In this document: piece after piece, positions 51,744 through 58,991 of the stretch
How the letters are laid out: each line of letters starts with the position of its first letter
Position numbering within the stretch: the first letter of the stretch is position 1
Source of the DNA: Candidatus Subterrananammoxibius californiae
GTDB lineage: Bacteria; Planctomycetota; Brocadiia; Brocadiales; Subterrananammoxibiaceae
DNA length: 64,000 bases
Direction: 5' to 3'
NCBI GenBank assembly: GCA_030586555.1
Contig: JAURAC010000006.1
Coordinates: 16,794-80,793 of the forward strand
The notes under the pieces: generated by a model
The model's database searches: none
The model's input: the letters and a program-made list of their open reading frames with translations, nothing else
Told to the model about the DNA's origin: nothing
Translations under genes and position numbers: made by a program

Positions 51744-52838
51744 TCAACTCTCAACTCCTACAACCTCCATTGGTTTCGCTTCCCTCACCACAAGCTTTTC
51801 TATCTCTGCAAGTAGCTCTGCGACCATCTGTGATTCAGGTATCCTTCTGACCTTTTGCCCCTTCTTGAAGAGGAACCCAAAACCCTTTCCGCCTGCAATC
51901 CCTATATCCACTTCCTTCGCCTCGCCGGGTCCGTTGACAACACAACCCATTATGGCTATTTGTAAACCTTTAAGATGTGGGGGAAGTTTTTCCTTAACCT
52001 CATTAACGATTTTTACAAGGTCAATTTCGCATCGTCCGCATGTGGGACATGATATGAGTTCTGCCTCACGGGATTTTGATAGTCCGAGCGACTCAAGGAT
52101 TTCATACCCGCATTCTACTTCCATTGAAGGGGGACCCGTAAAAGATACTCGTAAAGTATCTCCGATACCCTCTGAAAGAAGGCCGCCTATGCCAATTGCT
52201 GATTTTATCGTGGCTGTACTCGGCGGACCCGCAGCCGTTATTCCGAGATGAAGCGGATAGTCGCACTGCTTTGCTACCGACCTGTACGCCTCCATGGTTC
52301 TTGGAACATCCGAGGCTTTAAGCGATAAGACTATATCCTTGAATCCGAGGGATTCAAAATATTCACAGTATTCGAGCGTCTTTTTTACCATTAACTCCGT
52401 AAGTTCGCCTTCCTCATTTTCCTTACCACGAATGGAACCAGAGTTGACCCCAATCCTGATGGATACCCCCTTATTTTTTGCCGCCAGCACAATCTGCTCC
52501 ACCTTCGCCTTATCCTTGATGTTTCCAGGGTTTATACGAATCTTATCAACGCCCTGGGCGATTGCCTCAAGCGCAAGTTGTGCGCTAAAGTGTATATCGG
52601 CAACAAGTGGGATTTTAATGCCCTTTTTAATCTCACCGAGGCTTTTAGCATCGTTGATGGTGGGCACTGCGACACGAATTATATGACAGCCTATCTCTTC
52701 CAGTTCCTTTATCTGTCTTATCGTGCCAGCAATATCATCGGTATGTGTTTTTGCCATTGATTGGACGGAGATGGGAGCGCCGCCGCCAATCTGCACCGAC
52801 CCAGCAAAAACTGCCCTTGTTTTACGTCGAGTTATCAT
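51744..52838 (-). CDS. ispG: 4-hydroxy-3-methylbut-2-enyl diphosphate synthase
   Basis: VQSM, ADIHF, RINPGN, CPTCGRC, GCVVNGPGE. Confidence 0.97.
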   Translation of the reverse strand: MITRRKTRAVFAGSVQIGGGAPISVQSMAKTHTDDIAGTIRQIKELEEIGCHIIRVAVPTINDAKSLGEIKKGIKIPLVADIHFSAQLALEAIAQGVDKIRINPGNIKDKAKVEQIVLAAKNKGVSIRIGVNSGSIRGKENEEGELTELMVKKTLEYCEYFESLGFKDIVLSLKASDVPRTMEAYRSVAKQCDYPLHLGITAAGPPSTATIKSAIGIGGLLSEGIGDTLRVSFTGPPSMEVECGYEILESLGLSKSREAELISCPTCGRCEIDLVKIVNEVKEKLPPHLKGLQIAIMGCVVNGPGEAKEVDIGIAGGKGFGFLFKKGQKVRRIPESQMVAELLAEIEKLVVREAKPMEVVGVES

Positions 52839-52922: not shown

Positions 52923-53666
52923 TTAACCTCCACATTCCGTACTCCGCATTCCGGCGATAGCCTCGGCAAGCGCTAAATCCTCAGGCGTAGTAATCTTTAT
53001 ATTAATATCGCTGTCTCGTACGATTGCCACCTTATAGCCGAATCTTTCTGCCACTTCGGCGTCATCCGTAACTTCCGCATCTGTGGCAAGAAGTTTTTTG
53101 TATGCGTCCATAATAATGTGTTTCTTAAAGCCCTGGGGTGTCTGCGCCATCCAGAGGTCAGCCCTGGGCACAGTACGGGAAATAAGTAGGGGCGTATTGC
53201 AATACGCCCCTACTTGCTTTACCGTATCTTTTATTGGCACTGCGGCGATTGCCGCGCCATGTTCTTCTACCTTCTTGATAACAGCCTCGATAATCTCCTT
53301 TGTGACAAAGGGCCTAACAGCATCGTGAATCAGAACTATATCACAGTTAGCATCCAACTGTAGAAGCCCATTATAAACGCTGTCCTGCCTTCTTTTGCCG
53401 CCGGGAATAATCTTTGTCCTCTTTTGCTCACTAAGGCGGTCGTTCCACTCATTAACAACCGCAGAATGGTCATCAGGATTTACGACAAGGATTATCTCAT
53501 GAACACATTCAAAGCAAGAGAACTTCTCAAAGGTGTGGAGAAGTATCGGTTTGCCATTAATACTCAGAAATGGCTTCCTTACATTTCCACCCATGCGCAA
53601 ACCAAGCCCTGCTGAGGGGATAATTACAGAGACATTCGATACGTTCGCTTCGCTCAGTACAGGCAT
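52923..53666 (-). CDS. ispD: 2-C-methyl-D-erythritol 4-phosphate cytidylyltransferase
   Basis: AG.G.RM, RQDSV, IHDAVRP, QTPQ, TDD, KITTPEDL; start uncertain. Confidence 0.95.
   Translation of the reverse strand: MPVLSEANVSNVSVIIPSAGLGLRMGGNVRKPFLSINGKPILLHTFEKFSCFECVHEIILVVNPDDHSAVVNEWNDRLSEQKRTKIIPGGKRRQDSVYNGLLQLDANCDIVLIHDAVRPFVTKEIIEAVIKKVEEHGAAIAAVPIKDTVKQVGAYCNTPLLISRTVPRADLWMAQTPQGFKKHIIMDAYKKLLATDAEVTDDAEVAERFGYKVAIVRDSDINIKITTPEDLALAEAIAGMRSTECGG
53186..53213. repeat. Family-A palindrome in frame in ispD (empty form of 6149 and 9226)
   Basis: gtaggggcgtattgcaatacgcccctac encodes VGAYCNTPL. Confidence 0.93.
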
Positions 53667-53917
53667 GATGGCATTATACAAAAATTCCCATTAAAAGCAA
53701 GTAATCGGCAGGGGCAACCTTTAGTGTTGGAAAAAGCTCCCCAACATGTTATAATTTTGCAGTAATGCTGGTAGCGACACAGGCTCAGGATTTTATTGAC
53801 CGCTTCAATGCTGCGATTATTGTCAGTTATACAATAATTCATCCAGATTGGGCATATACAAATTGATATAGACCTGAACGTGTTAAATACAATTCAGCAT
53901 AGTAAGGATAAAAGAAT

Positions 53918-54601
53918 ATGAGTCAAACCCAAACAATATATATCAATCTTCAAAGGTTGCGTTCTTGTGGTGATACTGCATCTATAATAATCCGTCTCAT
54001 GATGGCTTGTAACGATATTTCTCTGGCGAACCAATGTCTTTCAAAATTTAAAGAAGATCAACCTTCAATCCGCAAGCATGTCCAACAAGGTGCGTTGATG
54101 TACTTCGTACGGTTACAGTGTGGGCATTTGAATGAAGCAATGAAAATCATCCAAGAAATCAAAGATGCCCAAAATCTTTGTGTTAGTGTTAAACTCTGTT
54201 CCCAAATGGCTCAGGACTCATTTAATAAATTGACCAACTGCTTGCAAGGCGGACCAGATTATTGTAATTTTCAAAAGTATATCGGAAGGATAAGACAAAA
54301 TACAGCTTTTCACTATGACGGGAAGTTGGCTGATAGAGCCTTATCTGATAGGTCTAATAGACCAGAAGCAAGTCTGTCTAAAATTACAAGAGGCGATCAT
54401 ATCAGTCTTTTGCGTTTTGAACTTGCTGATGATATCATAGATAGTATTGTATGTCGTCAAATTTGGGAAATTCCAAGAAATGTTGATCTTCGTCAAGAAG
54501 CAGATCGAATCGCGTATTTCGGGTCTGAACTGTGTAGATCCTTTCTTAATTTTTGTGTTGAATTTATTTTCCAATATATTCAGGAGTATGCAGCGATTTA
54601 A
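53918..54601 (+). CDS. Hypothetical protein with HEPN-like RxxxxxH motif
   Basis: IRQNTAFHYD in an apparently all-helical, AT-rich 227-aa ORF. Confidence 0.55.
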   Translation: MSQTQTIYINLQRLRSCGDTASIIIRLMMACNDISLANQCLSKFKEDQPSIRKHVQQGALMYFVRLQCGHLNEAMKIIQEIKDAQNLCVSVKLCSQMAQDSFNKLTNCLQGGPDYCNFQKYIGRIRQNTAFHYDGKLADRALSDRSNRPEASLSKITRGDHISLLRFELADDIIDSIVCRQIWEIPRNVDLRQEADRIAYFGSELCRSFLNFCVEFIFQYIQEYAAI

Positions 54602-54636
54602 TTTATTTGTTATATCATGTTTTGGTCTACAACTGC

Positions 54637-54705
54637 ATTTAACACGTAACAAACGGCTAATGCTAAAATTTCTTTGCAACTTCGTTTGTGCCGAAACAGT
54701 TATAC
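54637..54705 (+). mobile_element. Degenerate integron attC-like site
   Basis: ATTTAAC..ACAAACG...CGTTTGT..GTTATAC; ATTTAAC complements GTTAAAT at 53882 before the gene. Confidence 0.4.
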
Positions 54706-54820
54706 TAAAGACTGTTTAAAGAGAAGCCTGCTAAGAAAACTATTTGGAGAGAATGGGGGCTTGATAATAATCCAGCACATTCACCTCACTGAGTTCATGC
54801 TTGCTTTTCTCCATTTTACA

Positions 54821-54869
54821 TTGTAACATGGCAATTTTACGCGACTACCATTTACAAAATATGACTTAA
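54821..54869 (+). repeat. Decayed copy 1 of the psd 5' end
   Basis: gcgactaccatttacaaaatatgacttaa vs gcgactgccatttgcaaagtatgggttaa. Confidence 0.75.
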
Positions 54870-54930
54870 TGAAATTGAGTATATTTGGGGATATTTTTGT
54901 CTTCGGTGTTCATATTCGTTAAAGGAGAAA

Positions 54931-55237
54931 TAGGGGGTCCGTAGGGCAACTGCAAGCCAGAAATCTAGCTTTCCCTTAGTCAGGATGTGGAGAATCCTAG
55001 CTACGAAAGAGGTAAGTCTCCTAAAAAGACAGAGGGGTAAGGGTACAACCCCTCCTTGTTTGGGGTACAACAACAAGGCACTTGTCTCTTATCTATTATC
55101 TTTGGATAGGGTGGCAAGGGTACAACCCTCCTTGTTTGGGGTATAACCAAAGCAAATCCTTGGGGAACCTCGGAATGCTGGCCTCATGGCCTCTGCACCC
55201 TGAAAAGCTATTCTCCACATAGTCTGGGACCCCCCTA
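54931..55237 (+). ncRNA. Candidate ~310-nt structured RNA of unknown class
   Basis: Two nested long-range stems, two 32-33 nt internal repeats, and a hairpin with four G-U pairs on the + strand. Confidence 0.5.
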
Positions 55238-55249
55238 CCCTATTGGCTT

Positions 55250-55294
55250 GTAACTATATGCAACTACCATTTGCAAAATATGGGTTAAGGGACT
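55250..55294 (+). repeat. Copy 2 of the psd 5' end
   Basis: Reads MQLPFAKYGLR vs MRLPFAKYGLR. Confidence 0.85.
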
Positions 55295-55459
55295 ACAGAA
55301 AAAAATTGGAAATTAGAAAATGCAAATTTAAAATTTTCAATTTACAAACTGCATTTTCCAATTCTTTTCCCCGTTTACAAAGAGGGAGGTCAATGTGTTG
55401 CTTGGTTATAATCAATTAGAGATTACAGAGCCTTCTATGCTATAAAGGAGGGAATAAAA

Positions 55460-55648
55460 ATGCCTTATTTTAGTGAGTTTTATCAAGTAGAGGTAAGAGA
55501 CGAGATTGCCAGAGAGTTTACTAATTCTCTTGGGGAAGTAGATGATATGATGGCTGGCCTTCATGAAGTCCGCGTAAGAAGAGCCGAAAAGGAATACGAT
55601 TTAGAGGCATTGGCAAAGAGGCAGAAACTTTTGCAGACTACTAAATAG
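55460..55648 (+). CDS. 62-aa hypothetical protein
   Basis: Strong AAGGAGG RBS; helical, charged. Confidence 0.65.
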   Translation: MPYFSEFYQVEVRDEIAREFTNSLGEVDDMMAGLHEVRVRRAEKEYDLEALAKRQKLLQTTK

Positions 55649-55704
55649 GTTTTCACCCGGGAATAACCCCTTTTTGTAATTCTGATTGTAGTGTGGTAAT
55701 TTAT

Positions 55705-56352
55705 ATGCGACTGCCATTTGCAAAGTATGGGTTAAGAGAACTTGTAATCTTCGGAACTCTTTTGCTGACAGGTTTATTTCTGTGCCTTTTTTCCCTGCCA
55801 CAGTTGAGTCCAATCTTTATTCTTGGAATATTTTTTGTAGGATACTTTTTCAGGGACCCGGAAAGGGTTCCTCCTGATGGGGAGGAAAAACTCTTAGCTC
55901 CGGCAGATGGTACGGTTGTGGAAATTTCTAATGTGTATGAGGATAATTTCTTGAAATGCAGGGCAAGGAAGATTGGAATATTTATGTCAATCTTTGATGT
56001 CCATGTTAATCGAGCGCCTTGCAGCGGAGAGGTCGAATTTGTTGAGCACAAAAATGGCAAATTTCTGGATGCCCGACTTCAGGCATGTTCCGATGAGAAT
56101 GAGCGTAATCTGTTAGGATTGGCGGGGATAAACGGAAGGATACTTGTAAAGCAGATTGCTGGGCGCATAGCAAGAAGGATTGTATGCGACTGCTCAATCG
56201 GGCAAAATCTCCAGAGAGGGGAACGGTTTGGTATGATTAAGTTCGGGTCGAGATTAGAAGTCTTTATACCTGAGACTTTAAATATTGAACTCAATATTCT
56301 TAATGGGCAGAAAGTCACTGCAGGGGTAACAGTGTTGGGAGTCTTCAAATGA
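55705..56352 (+). CDS. psd: Phosphatidylserine decarboxylase proenzyme
   Basis: FFRDPER, APADG, FMS.FDVHVNR, IKFGSR. Confidence 0.93.
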   Translation: MRLPFAKYGLRELVIFGTLLLTGLFLCLFSLPQLSPIFILGIFFVGYFFRDPERVPPDGEEKLLAPADGTVVEISNVYEDNFLKCRARKIGIFMSIFDVHVNRAPCSGEVEFVEHKNGKFLDARLQACSDENERNLLGLAGINGRILVKQIAGRIARRIVCDCSIGQNLQRGERFGMIKFGSRLEVFIPETLNIELNILNGQKVTAGVTVLGVFK

Positions 56353-56828
56353 AAGATTATAAGAGAATATACGAAACGTATCTCGATTTCCTAAAACAGG
56401 AACTGAGAGATAATCTTGTTTCAGTTGTTCTTTATGGCTCTGTTGCAAGGGGGCAATACAGGGATGATTCGGATATAGACCTGCTTATTGTGTGTGAAGA
56501 CCTGCCTGATGACAGATTTAAAAGAAACGAGATATTTATTAATATAGAAGATAGGCTGCCAGAGGCGCTCGGGATTAACCCTCTTGAGGTTCCTTATATC
56601 TCAACTATTTCTAAGACGAGAGAAGGGGCTGGGTACCACTCCCCTCTTTACCTCGATATGGTTGAGGATGGCAAGATTCTTTTTGATAAAGGGGGATTCA
56701 TCCAGAAGGTCTTTAATGATATAAAAGAGAGGCTAAAGGAGCTTGGCGCAAAGAGGATATGGATTGGAGACAAATGGTACTGGGACCTGAAGCCTGATTT
56801 TAAGCCCGGTGAGGTAGTAGAAATATGA
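56349..56828 (+). CDS. Minimal nucleotidyltransferase (MNT) antitoxin
   Basis: LYGSVARG...SDIDL; WYWDLKP tail. Confidence 0.88.
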   Translation: MKDYKRIYETYLDFLKQELRDNLVSVVLYGSVARGQYRDDSDIDLLIVCEDLPDDRFKRNEIFINIEDRLPEALGINPLEVPYISTISKTREGAGYHSPLYLDMVEDGKILFDKGGFIQKVFNDIKERLKELGAKRIWIGDKWYWDLKPDFKPGEVVEI

Positions 56829-57240
56829 TAATGGAAAACCTTGCAAAGGTCTTGATGAAAGAGGCAGGCTATAGATATGAAGCGATGCTTAATTCATACG
56901 AAAACCAGCGATGGTCGTTTGTCGTCAGGCTTTCACAAGAATGTGTGGAATTAACGCTCAAAGCTATCTTAAGGTATTTCTGTATAGAACCCCAAAGTGG
57001 CATGATGTAGGCGCTATCTTTGAGCAAAATCAGCATAAGTTTACACCTCTCATTAGAGAAAAACTCGAAGACATTATAAAAATATCTAAAGAGTTGCGTA
57101 AGGACCGAGAACTAAGTATGTATGGCGACAAGGAGAGGGGTTTATCATCCATAGATTTATATAAAAAACCTCAGGCTACAGAGGCTAAGACGTGGGCTGA
57201 AGAAATATACAAGCTGGGAAAGGAAGTAATCCATGTTTAG
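56825..57240 (+). pseudogene. HEPN domain protein split by a 1-nt frameshift near 56990
   Basis: SQECVEL.LKA.L in one frame; PKWHDVG...RELSMYGD in the other. Confidence 0.8.
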
Positions 57241-57566: not shown

Positions 57567-58052
57567 GTGATTAAGACCGCAATATTAACTATAAGCGACA
57601 AAGGCTCTCGGGGAGAGCGCGAGGACAAGAGCGGGCAAACAATCAGGGATATGCTTGGCTCCATCAATGCAGAGGTGTGCGTATACGAGATTATCCCGGA
57701 TGAGCGGGACTTAATTGCTCAGAGGCTGCGGGCTTTGGTCGAAAAGGTAGATTTAATACTAACGACAGGGGGTACGGGCGTAGGACCCAGGGACGTGACG
57801 CCCGAAGCAACAAGGACGGTAATAGAAAAGGAACTGCCCGGCTTTGGTGAGGTAATGAGAATGGCAGGTTTTAAGATTACACCCAGAGCCATAGGGTCCC
57901 GTGCCGTTGCCGGTATATACAAGCAAACCTTAATCATAAATCTTCCTGGAAGCCCTAAAAGCGTTTCGGAGTGTCTTGGAACAATTATACAATCAATTCC
58001 TCACACGATTGACCTCATAAAAGGAAAGGTTAATGAATGTGGGAGGACATAA
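57567..58052 (+). CDS. mog: Molybdopterin adenylyltransferase (MogA/MoaB)
   Basis: TISD, D.SG, TTGGTG..PRDVTPEAT, NLPGSP. Confidence 0.92.
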   Translation: MIKTAILTISDKGSRGEREDKSGQTIRDMLGSINAEVCVYEIIPDERDLIAQRLRALVEKVDLILTTGGTGVGPRDVTPEATRTVIEKELPGFGEVMRMAGFKITPRAIGSRAVAGIYKQTLIINLPGSPKSVSECLGTIIQSIPHTIDLIKGKVNECGRT

Positions 58053-58112: not shown

Positions 58113-58991
58113 ATGACCTTTCAAGAAATTATATTAAAACTGCAAAAATACTGGGCAGATTACGGCTGTGTGCTACTTCAGCCTTACGACATAGAGGTGG
58201 GAGCCGGGACGTTTAACCCGGCAACCTTTTTGAAGTCGCTCGGTCCGGAACCGTGGAAGACAGCATATGTGGAACCATCAAGAAGGCCCACTGACGGCAG
58301 GTATGGAGCCAATCCCAATAGACTCCAGCATTATTATCAATTCCAGGTCGTAATAAAGCCCGCACCGGATGACGCTCAGGACATTTACCTTAACAGCATG
58401 CGGCATCTTGGGATAGACCTTGTTTCGCATGACGTGCGTTTTGTAGAGGATGACTGGGAATCCCCCACGCTCGGCGCTACAGGGCTTGGCTGGGAGGTCT
58501 GGCTCGATGGGATGGAGGTAACCCAATTTACATACTTCCAGCAGGTGGGCGGCATCGAACTTGACACCATTTCCCTTGAACTCACGTATGGACTTGAACG
58601 CATAGCCATGTTCATCCAGCAAAAGGGCTCCGTCTTTGACATCGAGTGGGTTAATGGCTGTACATACGGTGATATACATCGTCAGGACGAGATACAATTT
58701 TCTATATATAACTTTGACATGGCTGACACCACCCTCCTCTTTCAATTGTTTGACCAGTACGAAAAGGAATGCAAACGGTTATTGAAAGAGGGTCTGATAC
58801 TTCCGGCATATGATTATGTGCTTAAGTGTTCTCATACATTCAACTTACTCGATGCCAGAAAGGCAATAGGCGTAACACAGCGCACAAGCTATATTGCACG
58901 TGTTAGAAATATAGCCAGAGCTTGCGCTGAAGGGTACTTGAAGATGAGGGAGGAACTCGGCTGGCCATTACTGAAAAAAAAAGATAGGTAA
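58113..58991 (+). CDS. glyQ: Glycine--tRNA ligase alpha subunit
   Basis: GAGTF, PSRRP.DGRYG.NPNRL, QFTYFQQ, TYGLER. Confidence 0.98.

Follow-up and report, generated by a model that had tools for sequence, protein, structure and literature searches.

A strongly folded non-coding element on a small insertion upstream of psd in Candidatus Subterrananammoxibius californiae, tentatively read as a lineage-specific structured RNA

What is a strongly folded stretch of some 300 nucleotides (nt) doing upstream of psd in Candidatus Subterrananammoxibius californiae? The question is raised by a 64,000-nt piece of contig JAURAC010000006.1 (assembly GCA_030586555.1; 3.34 Mb in 150 contigs, completeness 95.8%), here called the window, whose own numbering is used throughout. 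A first-pass annotation of the window, made without database searches, had proposed a novel RNA with twin repeat hairpins at 54931-55237, downstream of a gene for a HEPN-like protein of 227 amino acids (aa) and upstream of psd and of the 62-aa open reading frame (ORF) that precedes it, here ORF62. The structure of this 307-nt element is real and non-random. Tentatively, and at somewhat less than an even chance, we favor the reading that it is a lineage-specific, plus-strand structured RNA carried on a small insertion and made by read-through in the leader of ORF62 and psd. So far the element is an orphan, without relation to the cassette that carries the HEPN-like gene.

The evidence begins with two nested long-range stems, which had been described in the first-pass annotation and can be read directly from the sequence. 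The outer stem, P1, forms a helix of 8 base pairs (bp), GGGGGUCC/GGACCCCC, with a mean pair probability of 0.91 in the plus-strand ensemble, from which all pair probabilities given here are taken. Within it lies P2, made of 4 + 10 + 5 bp with a 3-nt bulge (pair probabilities 0.63, 0.98, and 0.89), which contains an 11-nt exact inverted repeat running from 54985 to 55210. This inner repeat is flanked by AGTCAGG and AGTCTGG, which match at 6/7 positions and whose bases can also pair within P2. As a test of chance, the segment between the two psd-start copies that flank the element (54874-55254) was put through 2000 dinucleotide shuffles; stems nested with P1 outside P2 arose in none of the 2000, and an exact long-range inverted repeat of at least 11 nt arose in 21. 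The whole element has a minimum free energy (MFE) of -116.2 kcal/mol on the plus strand (z -2.69), a value that was equaled by 1 of 100 shuffles, and its GC fraction is 0.44-0.54, as compared with 0.26-0.41 in the flanking windows.

Enclosed by the stems are two near-identical repeat units, which differ, as had been annotated, by one C indel and one C/T exchange (31/32 positions identical) and which form a 44-nt alignment at 86% identity when a 5' extension is included. The boxes from which the units are built recur at a spacing of 22 nt inside each unit, and in its own genome the unit pattern was found at the element only. Between the units stands a hairpin that had been described as 15 bp with four G-U pairs; the four G-U pairs are indeed present, but the helix has 13 bp plus a 1-nt bulge. 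The same ensemble contains a 7-bp hairpin (GAGGGGU/ACCCCUC) at 0.97, a GGCC/GGCC hairpin at 1.00, and a long irregular helix that joins the 3' half of unit 1 to unit 2. It is in this core that the two strands part: the twin domain (55028-55150) folds at -44.2 kcal/mol (z -3.96) on the plus strand versus -31.4 kcal/mol (z -1.61) on the minus strand, and the central hairpin folds at -11.2 kcal/mol (z -4.0) versus -0.7 kcal/mol (z +0.5). The annotated preference for the plus strand thus reappears in the core (z -4.0 versus -1.6 in round figures), and the asymmetry supports a single-stranded form of that strand, be it RNA or single-stranded DNA (ssDNA). A signal in double-stranded DNA would not need it.

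How did the element come to lie here? It had been described as bracketed by duplicates of the psd end, and flanking copies are present, but they derive from the start of psd. The psd-start repeats occupy 54836-54873, 55255-55292, and 55702-55739 (spacings 419 and 447), the last belonging to the true gene, and copies A and B have decayed to 79-89%. The segment between copies A and B lacks psd homology, and its ends lie 13 nt and 3 nt from the outer inverted repeat. Since this segment coincides almost exactly with the folded element, the fold is the cargo of the insertion, which agrees with the annotated view of the element as acquired. A second unit, consisting of an AT-rich palindrome and ORF62, is framed alike by copies B and C, and this framing of two successive accessory units by gene-start copies is the most unusual aspect of the locus. 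The psd N-terminus from the ATG at 55705 is conserved in 29 psd loci of the same order, and none of the 29 has an upstream psd-start duplicate (at least 26/38 matches within 1.5 kb) or a nearby ispD, ORF62, or MNT gene; the arrangement is therefore specific to this lineage. The 50-110-nt duplications may have arisen, for example, when small circles integrated, either site-specifically or by a single crossover. Examined as possible 3' halves of attC-like hairpins, the psd-start copies gave unremarkable folds (z +0.96 for 55650-55745, +0.16 for 55222-55295, and +0.10 for 54755-54880), and no significant inverted psd-start copy was found inside the units (p 0.27-0.62). Copy A is the oldest of the copies, and the ATG of copy B opens a 53-aa frame that runs through the AT-rich palindrome.

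Table 1. Features of the locus, in window positions
Feature	Position	Strand	Basis or remarks
ispG	51744-52838	-	gene order by ORFs and Pfam
ispD	52923-53681	-	gene order by ORFs and Pfam
227-aa gene	53918-54601	+	gene order by ORFs and Pfam
psd-start copy A	54804-54917	+	decayed psd 5' region (~-35 to +75), ATG to ACG; aligned to 55670-55780
Inserted segment between copies A and B	54918-55240		without psd homology; A-C homology ends at 54917, B-C homology begins at 55241
Folded non-coding element (307 nt)	54931-55237	+	MFE, ensemble helices, no Rfam match, single copy, raised GC
P1 5' arm	54931-54940	+	TAGGGGGTCC; pairs with 55227-55237
P2 5' arm	54981-55002	+	ATGTGGAGAAT..TAGCT at 54985-55002; pairs with 55206-55226
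Repeat unit 1 (33 nt)	55039-55071	+	two GGGTACAAC boxes and CCCCTCCTT
Central hairpin	55083-55095 / 55103-55116	+ only	13 bp, 1-nt bulge, 4 G-U pairs, pair probability 0.98
Repeat unit 2 (32 nt)	55116-55147	+	GGGTACAAC, GGGGTATAAC, CCCTCCTT
P2 3' arm	55206-55226	+	AGCTATTCTCCACAT at 55206-55220
P1 3' arm	55227-55237	+	GGACCCCCCTA, one extra C
psd-start copy B	55241-55292	+	psd 5' region ~-16 to +35, ATG kept; aligned to 55689-55739; 89% over 38 nt
ORF62 (62 aa)	55460-55648	+	ORF list; without family match
psd-start copy C	55670-55780	+	true psd 5' region, start codon ATG 55705
psd	55705-56352	+	Pfam PS_Dcarbxylase 6.4e-45
MNT-type nucleotidyltransferase	56349-56828	+	gene order by ORFs and Pfam
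HEPN protein	56911-57240	+	small, Pfam HEPN domain
mog	57567-58052	+	gene order by ORFs and Pfam
glyQ	58113-58991	+	gene order by ORFs and Pfam

Is the element a diverged member of a known RNA family? Rfam 15 returned no match at gathering thresholds over the whole window, so that the first-pass claim of novelty survives the scan, and at E <=10 the region 54600-55500 gave 16 weak matches, none of which spans the element and the best of which reached 21.8 bits against a gathering score of 44. ARAGORN found no tRNA or transfer-messenger RNA (tmRNA) in the window. A diverged RNase P RNA, tmRNA, or 6S RNA was considered and rejected, since all three were found on other contigs of the genome (RF00010 at 287 bits on C16, RF00023 at 177.9 bits on C90, and RF00013 at 67.1 bits on C117); the annotation had likewise seen no signature of RNase P RNA or tmRNA. 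It had also reported no credible ORF. The longest ORFs that overlap the element have 74, 53, 49, 46, and 43 aa and no Pfam match at E <=1, and the indel shifts the reading frame between the two repeat units, which together rule out protein coding. A CRISPR mini-array or CreA-like RNA was set aside because the genome's own CRISPR repeats are dissimilar by eye to the 33-nt unit and BLAST finds the element alone. The genome has two CRISPR arrays, both outside the window and with different repeat types (C88:9313-10865, ~22 repeats; C110:1234-2569, ~21 repeats).

An integron origin deserves a separate look, since one clear cassette, the 227-aa gene with its attC-like hairpin, lies 230 nt upstream of the element. 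An attC site is a hairpin of ~57-141 nt that is closed by an RYYYAAC / GTTRRRY box pair. Scanning 53600-55800 for AAC...GTT pairs 40-160 nt apart with at least 6/7 complementary box bases yielded three plus-strand candidates, none of which lies inside 54931-55237 and none of which has its boxes paired in the fold. No RYYYAAC/GTTRRRY pair closes the element or occurs within it, and no further attC-like site follows the upstream cassette. With no attC-like candidate inside the element and no integron integrase above the curated cut-off in the genome, a canonical attC site or an ORF-less integron cassette was rejected.

Homologues were sought widely. In its own genome the element is single-copy (one BLAST match and one covariance-model match), with no second paired occurrence of the stem arms; the multi-copy dispersal that the annotation had named as the mark of a transposable element was thus not seen. 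BLAST of the element in 40 genomes of the same order and a twin-unit pattern allowing 2 mismatches in 400 genomes of the phylum gave no homologue. A looser twin-unit pattern hit 63 loci on metagenome contigs, none with extended similarity (the best had 47 nt at 81% in an unrelated context), and 3 loci on viral contigs, none with a covariance-model match; the P2-arm pattern had no hit on viral contigs, and blastn of the element against phages and plasmids had none either. The covariance model R1, for which the one available sequence and its MFE fold served as input, matched 0/91 same-order genomes and 0/150 genomes of the phylum, and among 100 loci collected during the analysis it gave only 4 matches, at <=10.7 bits. 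Literature searches on small or non-coding RNA of anammox bacteria and on small RNA of integron cassettes surfaced no study of such an RNA. Window DNA is present in groundwater metagenome runs from two studies; 10 public runs with it were found, and no RNA run was among them. Run X2, from an independent study, agrees with the window at every position of 54300-55346, and one of its contigs passes through the element (0 differences).

How, then, might the element work if it is an RNA? Transcription, processing, and any function are what we infer for it, and some integron cassettes without an ORF are known to encode regulatory RNAs (PMC8876359), which we count in favor of an RNA. No promoter-like site and no typical terminator of its own were found, and the element would therefore be read through from upstream, for example from a displaced psd promoter region kept with copy A. 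P1 and P2 would form a 27-bp closing helix around a branched core with the two repeat units and the G-U-rich hairpin. This helix may stabilize a discrete RNA, or it may mark the RNA for excision in the way that long-range stems do for double-strand-specific RNases. If the element is active, our best guess is that it would bind a protein through its four GGGUAYAAC boxes; titration of Shine-Dalgarno sequences by the two CCUCCUU tracts would be less likely than protein binding.

Several observations weigh against a working RNA and are best taken together. The minus strand of the whole element also folds well (-110.3 kcal/mol, z -2.22), and this good folding of both strands means that the structure is in large part palindromic DNA. 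Repeat units 1 and 2 fold differently, and the CCUCCUU tracts are mostly paired, with predicted unpaired probabilities of 0.00-0.02 for CCCCUC in unit 1 and 0.06-0.50 for CCCUCCUUG in unit 2; a simple twin-hairpin or anti-Shine-Dalgarno mechanism is weakened accordingly. The first-pass picture of two equivalent hairpins with CCTCCTT exposed in both loops is not supported by the predicted fold, its ACCCC/GGGGU hairpins having probabilities of ~0 and 0.06. There is no plus-strand promoter-like site between 53796 and 55306, and the sole terminator-like site is weak and lies inside unit 2. The copy from the independent study is letter-identical and hence offers no sequence variation, and no search found a homologue that could show covariation. 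The element sits in a patch of mobile DNA, between an attC cassette and a multi-copy palindrome, and structures of ssDNA and RNA are, according to PMC5737381, indistinguishable by sequence analysis.

The two accessory units that flank the element bear on this weighing. Judged by its sequence, the unit that carries the 227-aa gene is a cassette of the integron type; no integron integrase in this genome scores above the curated cut-off (best 79.8 bits versus 265). Its frame spans 53883-54704, with GTTAAAT 30 nt upstream of the start codon, ATTTAAC 35 nt past the stop codon, and then an attC-like hairpin of ~70 nt (54631-54704) that ends in GTTATAC; the gene stands between the arms of a perfect 11-bp inverted repeat, ACGTGTTAAAT / ATTTAACACGT. 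The box frame recurs in about a third of 34 loci that the protein family has in other phyla: 11/34 have an R''-type box no more than 45 nt past the stop (control 6%), 9/34 an R'-type box no more than 60 nt ahead of the start (control 8%), and 5/34 both (control 0.3%), and several family loci carry textbook attC-like sites. A contig of run X8 matches only the 3' half of the hairpin (54649-54691) and has an unlike sequence with GGCTAAC before it, a pattern that fits a hairpin common to different cassettes. The boxes and the hairpin end before copy A, and the element thus lies outside the 227-aa cassette.

The label HEPN-like, which the first-pass annotation had given to the 227-aa protein, is plausible. 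The family comprises 130 clusters at E <=0.001 and has no Pfam, NCBIfam, or PADLOC match. R126 and H132 (Rx5H) are invariant across 32 aligned members, which fits the HEPN Rx4-6H motif, and the model of the protein is all-helical and confident (pLDDT 89.6). VIA-align matched it to the HEPN toxins 8xdj_A (Z 8.2), 5yep_B (Z 7.4), and 7ae2_A (Z 6.8), values that are below the telling level for helical bundles, and the integron cassette protein 3jrt_A was among its best structural neighbors (Z 9.3). Foldseek gave nothing at E <=0.001 and a sequence search of the PDB nothing under E 0.1; leads from a structure atlas were HepT-like (TM 0.41/0.58) and HEPN_AbiU2 (0.85). The distribution of the family is patchy (2/91 other same-order genomes; 44 loci over many phyla), and its neighbors vary in the manner of defense islands, including TIR, AbiEii, DUF5677, and a position between hsdM and hsdS.

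On the other side of the element, the AT-rich palindrome (~72-80 nt, 55293-55375) is multi-copy, with 59 BLAST hits in its own genome, and appears to have been inserted after copy B; in run X2 its summed depth is 409 versus 8.5, and the X2 contigs break there. ORF62 behind it, which has a strong ribosome-binding site, is probably a real gene, to judge from a ~92%-identical relative in which 6/8 of the listed differences fall at third codon positions. It is single-copy, has no family match, and was not found in 30 high-quality genomes of the same order. Relatives of the ORF62/psd region occur in runs X7, X8, and X9 (for example over 55441-55870, with 36 differences and 5 gaps). The contigs of these three runs do not cover 54769-55237, which is not proof of absence. 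One X9 contig joins 55742 back to 55390, and a loose end before 55704 resembles the sequence upstream of copy A at ~25/30 letters by eye, which may mean that one relative carries just one psd-start copy and lacks the RNA segment. The sequence that directly follows the ORF62 stop codon (55659-55682), GGGAATAACCCCTTTTTGT, agrees at 15/19 positions with the first half of the 33-nt unit, GGGTACAACCCCTCCTTGT, and both resemble a small GGG-N5-CCC hairpin followed by a T-rich run, a likeness that may be due to chance or to common descent.

Such surroundings invite the reading that the element is gene-less mobile DNA without any RNA function, which we regard as doubtful although it is the most serious of the rivals. 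It would be either a foldback unit resembling a miniature inverted-repeat transposable element (MITE) or a recombination cassette of the hairpin type. Such a unit would terminate in the outer inverted repeats and would offer a recombinase or transposase four binding sites, the GGGTAYAAC direct repeats; if the fold mattered, it would do so in double- or single-stranded DNA while the element inserts. The closeness of the outer repeat to the ends of the inserted segment, the regular spacing of the boxes, the good overall fold of both strands, and the adjoining cassette and palindrome all suit this idea, as does the look of AGTCAGG/AGTCTGG around the inner repeat as a 7-bp target duplication, and attC sites have earlier been picked up as "RNA motifs" (PMC5737381). 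Mobile DNA of this kind is harder to reconcile with a single copy in a 96%-complete assembly and no diverged copies of the arms, with a length of 307 nt that far exceeds that of the adjoining attC-like hairpin, and with a flanking duplication of 50-90 nt in place of a short target duplication. The lack of a box pair at the ends of the element, of an attC-like candidate and a significant inverted psd-start copy inside it, and of an integrase above the cut-off tells against it too, and so does a core that folds on one strand only, though ssDNA would share that property. A rather unlikely further reading is that the locus reveals a new mobile non-coding unit, a ~310-nt strand-specific RNA or ssDNA that takes along, when it moves, a copy of the psd 5' end, psd being its target, and builds a small array of cassettes flanked by gene starts (first the RNA unit, next that of ORF62) without attC or a recognizable integron integrase. 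Ranking below it is neutral debris: repeated rounds of insertion, duplication, and deletion at the psd start would have left behind a palindrome that today serves neither as RNA nor in mobility. Nearly perfect stems (exact arms of 10 and 11 nt), units that agree at 31/32 positions while the adjoining psd copies have fallen to 79-89%, and a core that folds strand-specifically at z -4 are not what debris would lead one to expect, even though copies A and B are decayed, the ATG of copy A is lost, no homologue of the element was found, and the accessory patchwork is missing from same-order genomes (227-aa gene in 2/91, ORF62 in 0/30).

The element precedes ORF62 and psd on their own strand, and no typical terminator separates it from them, which gives a slim chance to a cis-acting leader of the ORF62-psd operon. 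In such a leader, translation or read-through of the genes that follow would depend on the CCUCCUU tracts or on alternative folds. ORF62 has the look of a genuine gene, and CCCUCCUU is complementary to AAGGAGGG just before it (55447-55454), but any CCUCC tract is expected to be complementary to a strong Shine-Dalgarno sequence, and the tracts here are mostly paired in the ensemble. The ribosome-binding site of ORF62 is ~220 nt away, beyond copy B and the mobile palindrome, and psd does without such a leader in the 29 same-order loci. Least probable of all, and very improbable, is the proposal of the first-pass annotation that the element is the RNA antitoxin or partner of the HEPN-like protein. 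The element does follow the 227-aa gene on the same strand at a distance of 330 nt, as had been annotated, the protein combines an invariant Rx5H with weak HEPN-type fold matches, and repeated units are a feature of type III antitoxins. However, known type III systems have their repeats upstream of the toxin gene, and here the element lies beyond both the cassette boundary and copy A. Neither BLAST nor the covariance model found it in 46 other loci of the 227-aa family (among the 100 collected loci), whose neighbors vary widely, and the distance to the next ORF downstream (34 of the 36 tabulated loci) has a median of 81 nt and reaches at least 300 nt in only 5/34. We keep to the reading of a plus-strand structured RNA, at the tentative strength given at the outset.

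A toxin-antitoxin system of another kind may nevertheless be close by. The MNT-type nucleotidyltransferase gene directly behind psd overlaps the psd stop codon by 4 nt and is followed by a gene for a HEPN-domain protein (56349-57240), and the two are likely a type VII toxin-antitoxin pair.

If the element is transcribed and stable, it would be an undescribed structured RNA in anammox-related planctomycetes and a case in which a discrete insertion carried nothing but an RNA. If it is a relic of mobile DNA only, it would serve as a warning that GC-rich, strongly folding, ORF-free stretches near cassettes are easily mistaken for RNA genes. Comparison with known systems helps to place it. Type III toxin-antitoxin RNAs form ToxI-type tandem repeat arrays with units of ~33-36 nt, and the element resembles them in its ~33-nt repeats and in its place beside a putative RNase-like toxin gene. 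It departs from them in having two units 44 nt apart, downstream of the gene and outside its cassette, and in showing no co-occurrence with the 227-aa family in the other 46 loci. In small RNAs of the RsaE/RoxS type, a C-rich motif pairs with the Shine-Dalgarno sequence. The element likewise has two CCUCC-containing tracts able to pair with AGGAGG, but it is about three times longer, its tracts are predicted to be paired, and it has no Rfam match. With bacterial MITEs and foldback elements (Correia, ERIC, and RUP types) it shares terminal inverted repeats (10/11-nt outer, 11-nt exact inner), the outer pair standing at the ends of the inserted segment, as well as internal repeats, an intergenic position, and a possible short duplication at the inner repeat. 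It differs from them in its one copy, with none in 91 same-order or 150 phylum genomes, in the one-strand fold of its core, and in a flanking duplication that is far longer than a target-site duplication.

The closest parallels come from cassette DNA. The Transposase-resistance and DUF1874 motifs are attC/ssDNA structures that were found as "RNA motifs" (PMC5737381), and like them the element has a strand-specific fold in a cassette-rich region, where RNA and ssDNA are not assignable by sequence. Those motifs recur in consecutive intergenic regions and in many genomes, whereas the element is unique so far. ORF-less integron cassettes, some of which encode regulatory RNAs such as sRNA-Xcc1 of Xanthomonas campestris (PMC8876359), consist, like the element, of a few hundred non-coding bases that were taken up as one discrete unit, and the element adjoins an attC-like gene cassette in a genome without an integrase above the cut-off, in a setting that resembles a cluster of attC sites lacking an integrase (CALIN). 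It differs from such cassettes in having no attC box pair or attC-size hairpin at its 3' end, in being a putative RNA only, and in carrying at its flanks, in place of attC, 50-110-nt duplicates of the start of the housekeeping gene next to it. This framing of both the element and ORF62 by housekeeping-gene starts hints at a mechanism of insertion that is unlike either attC recombination in integrons or transposition.

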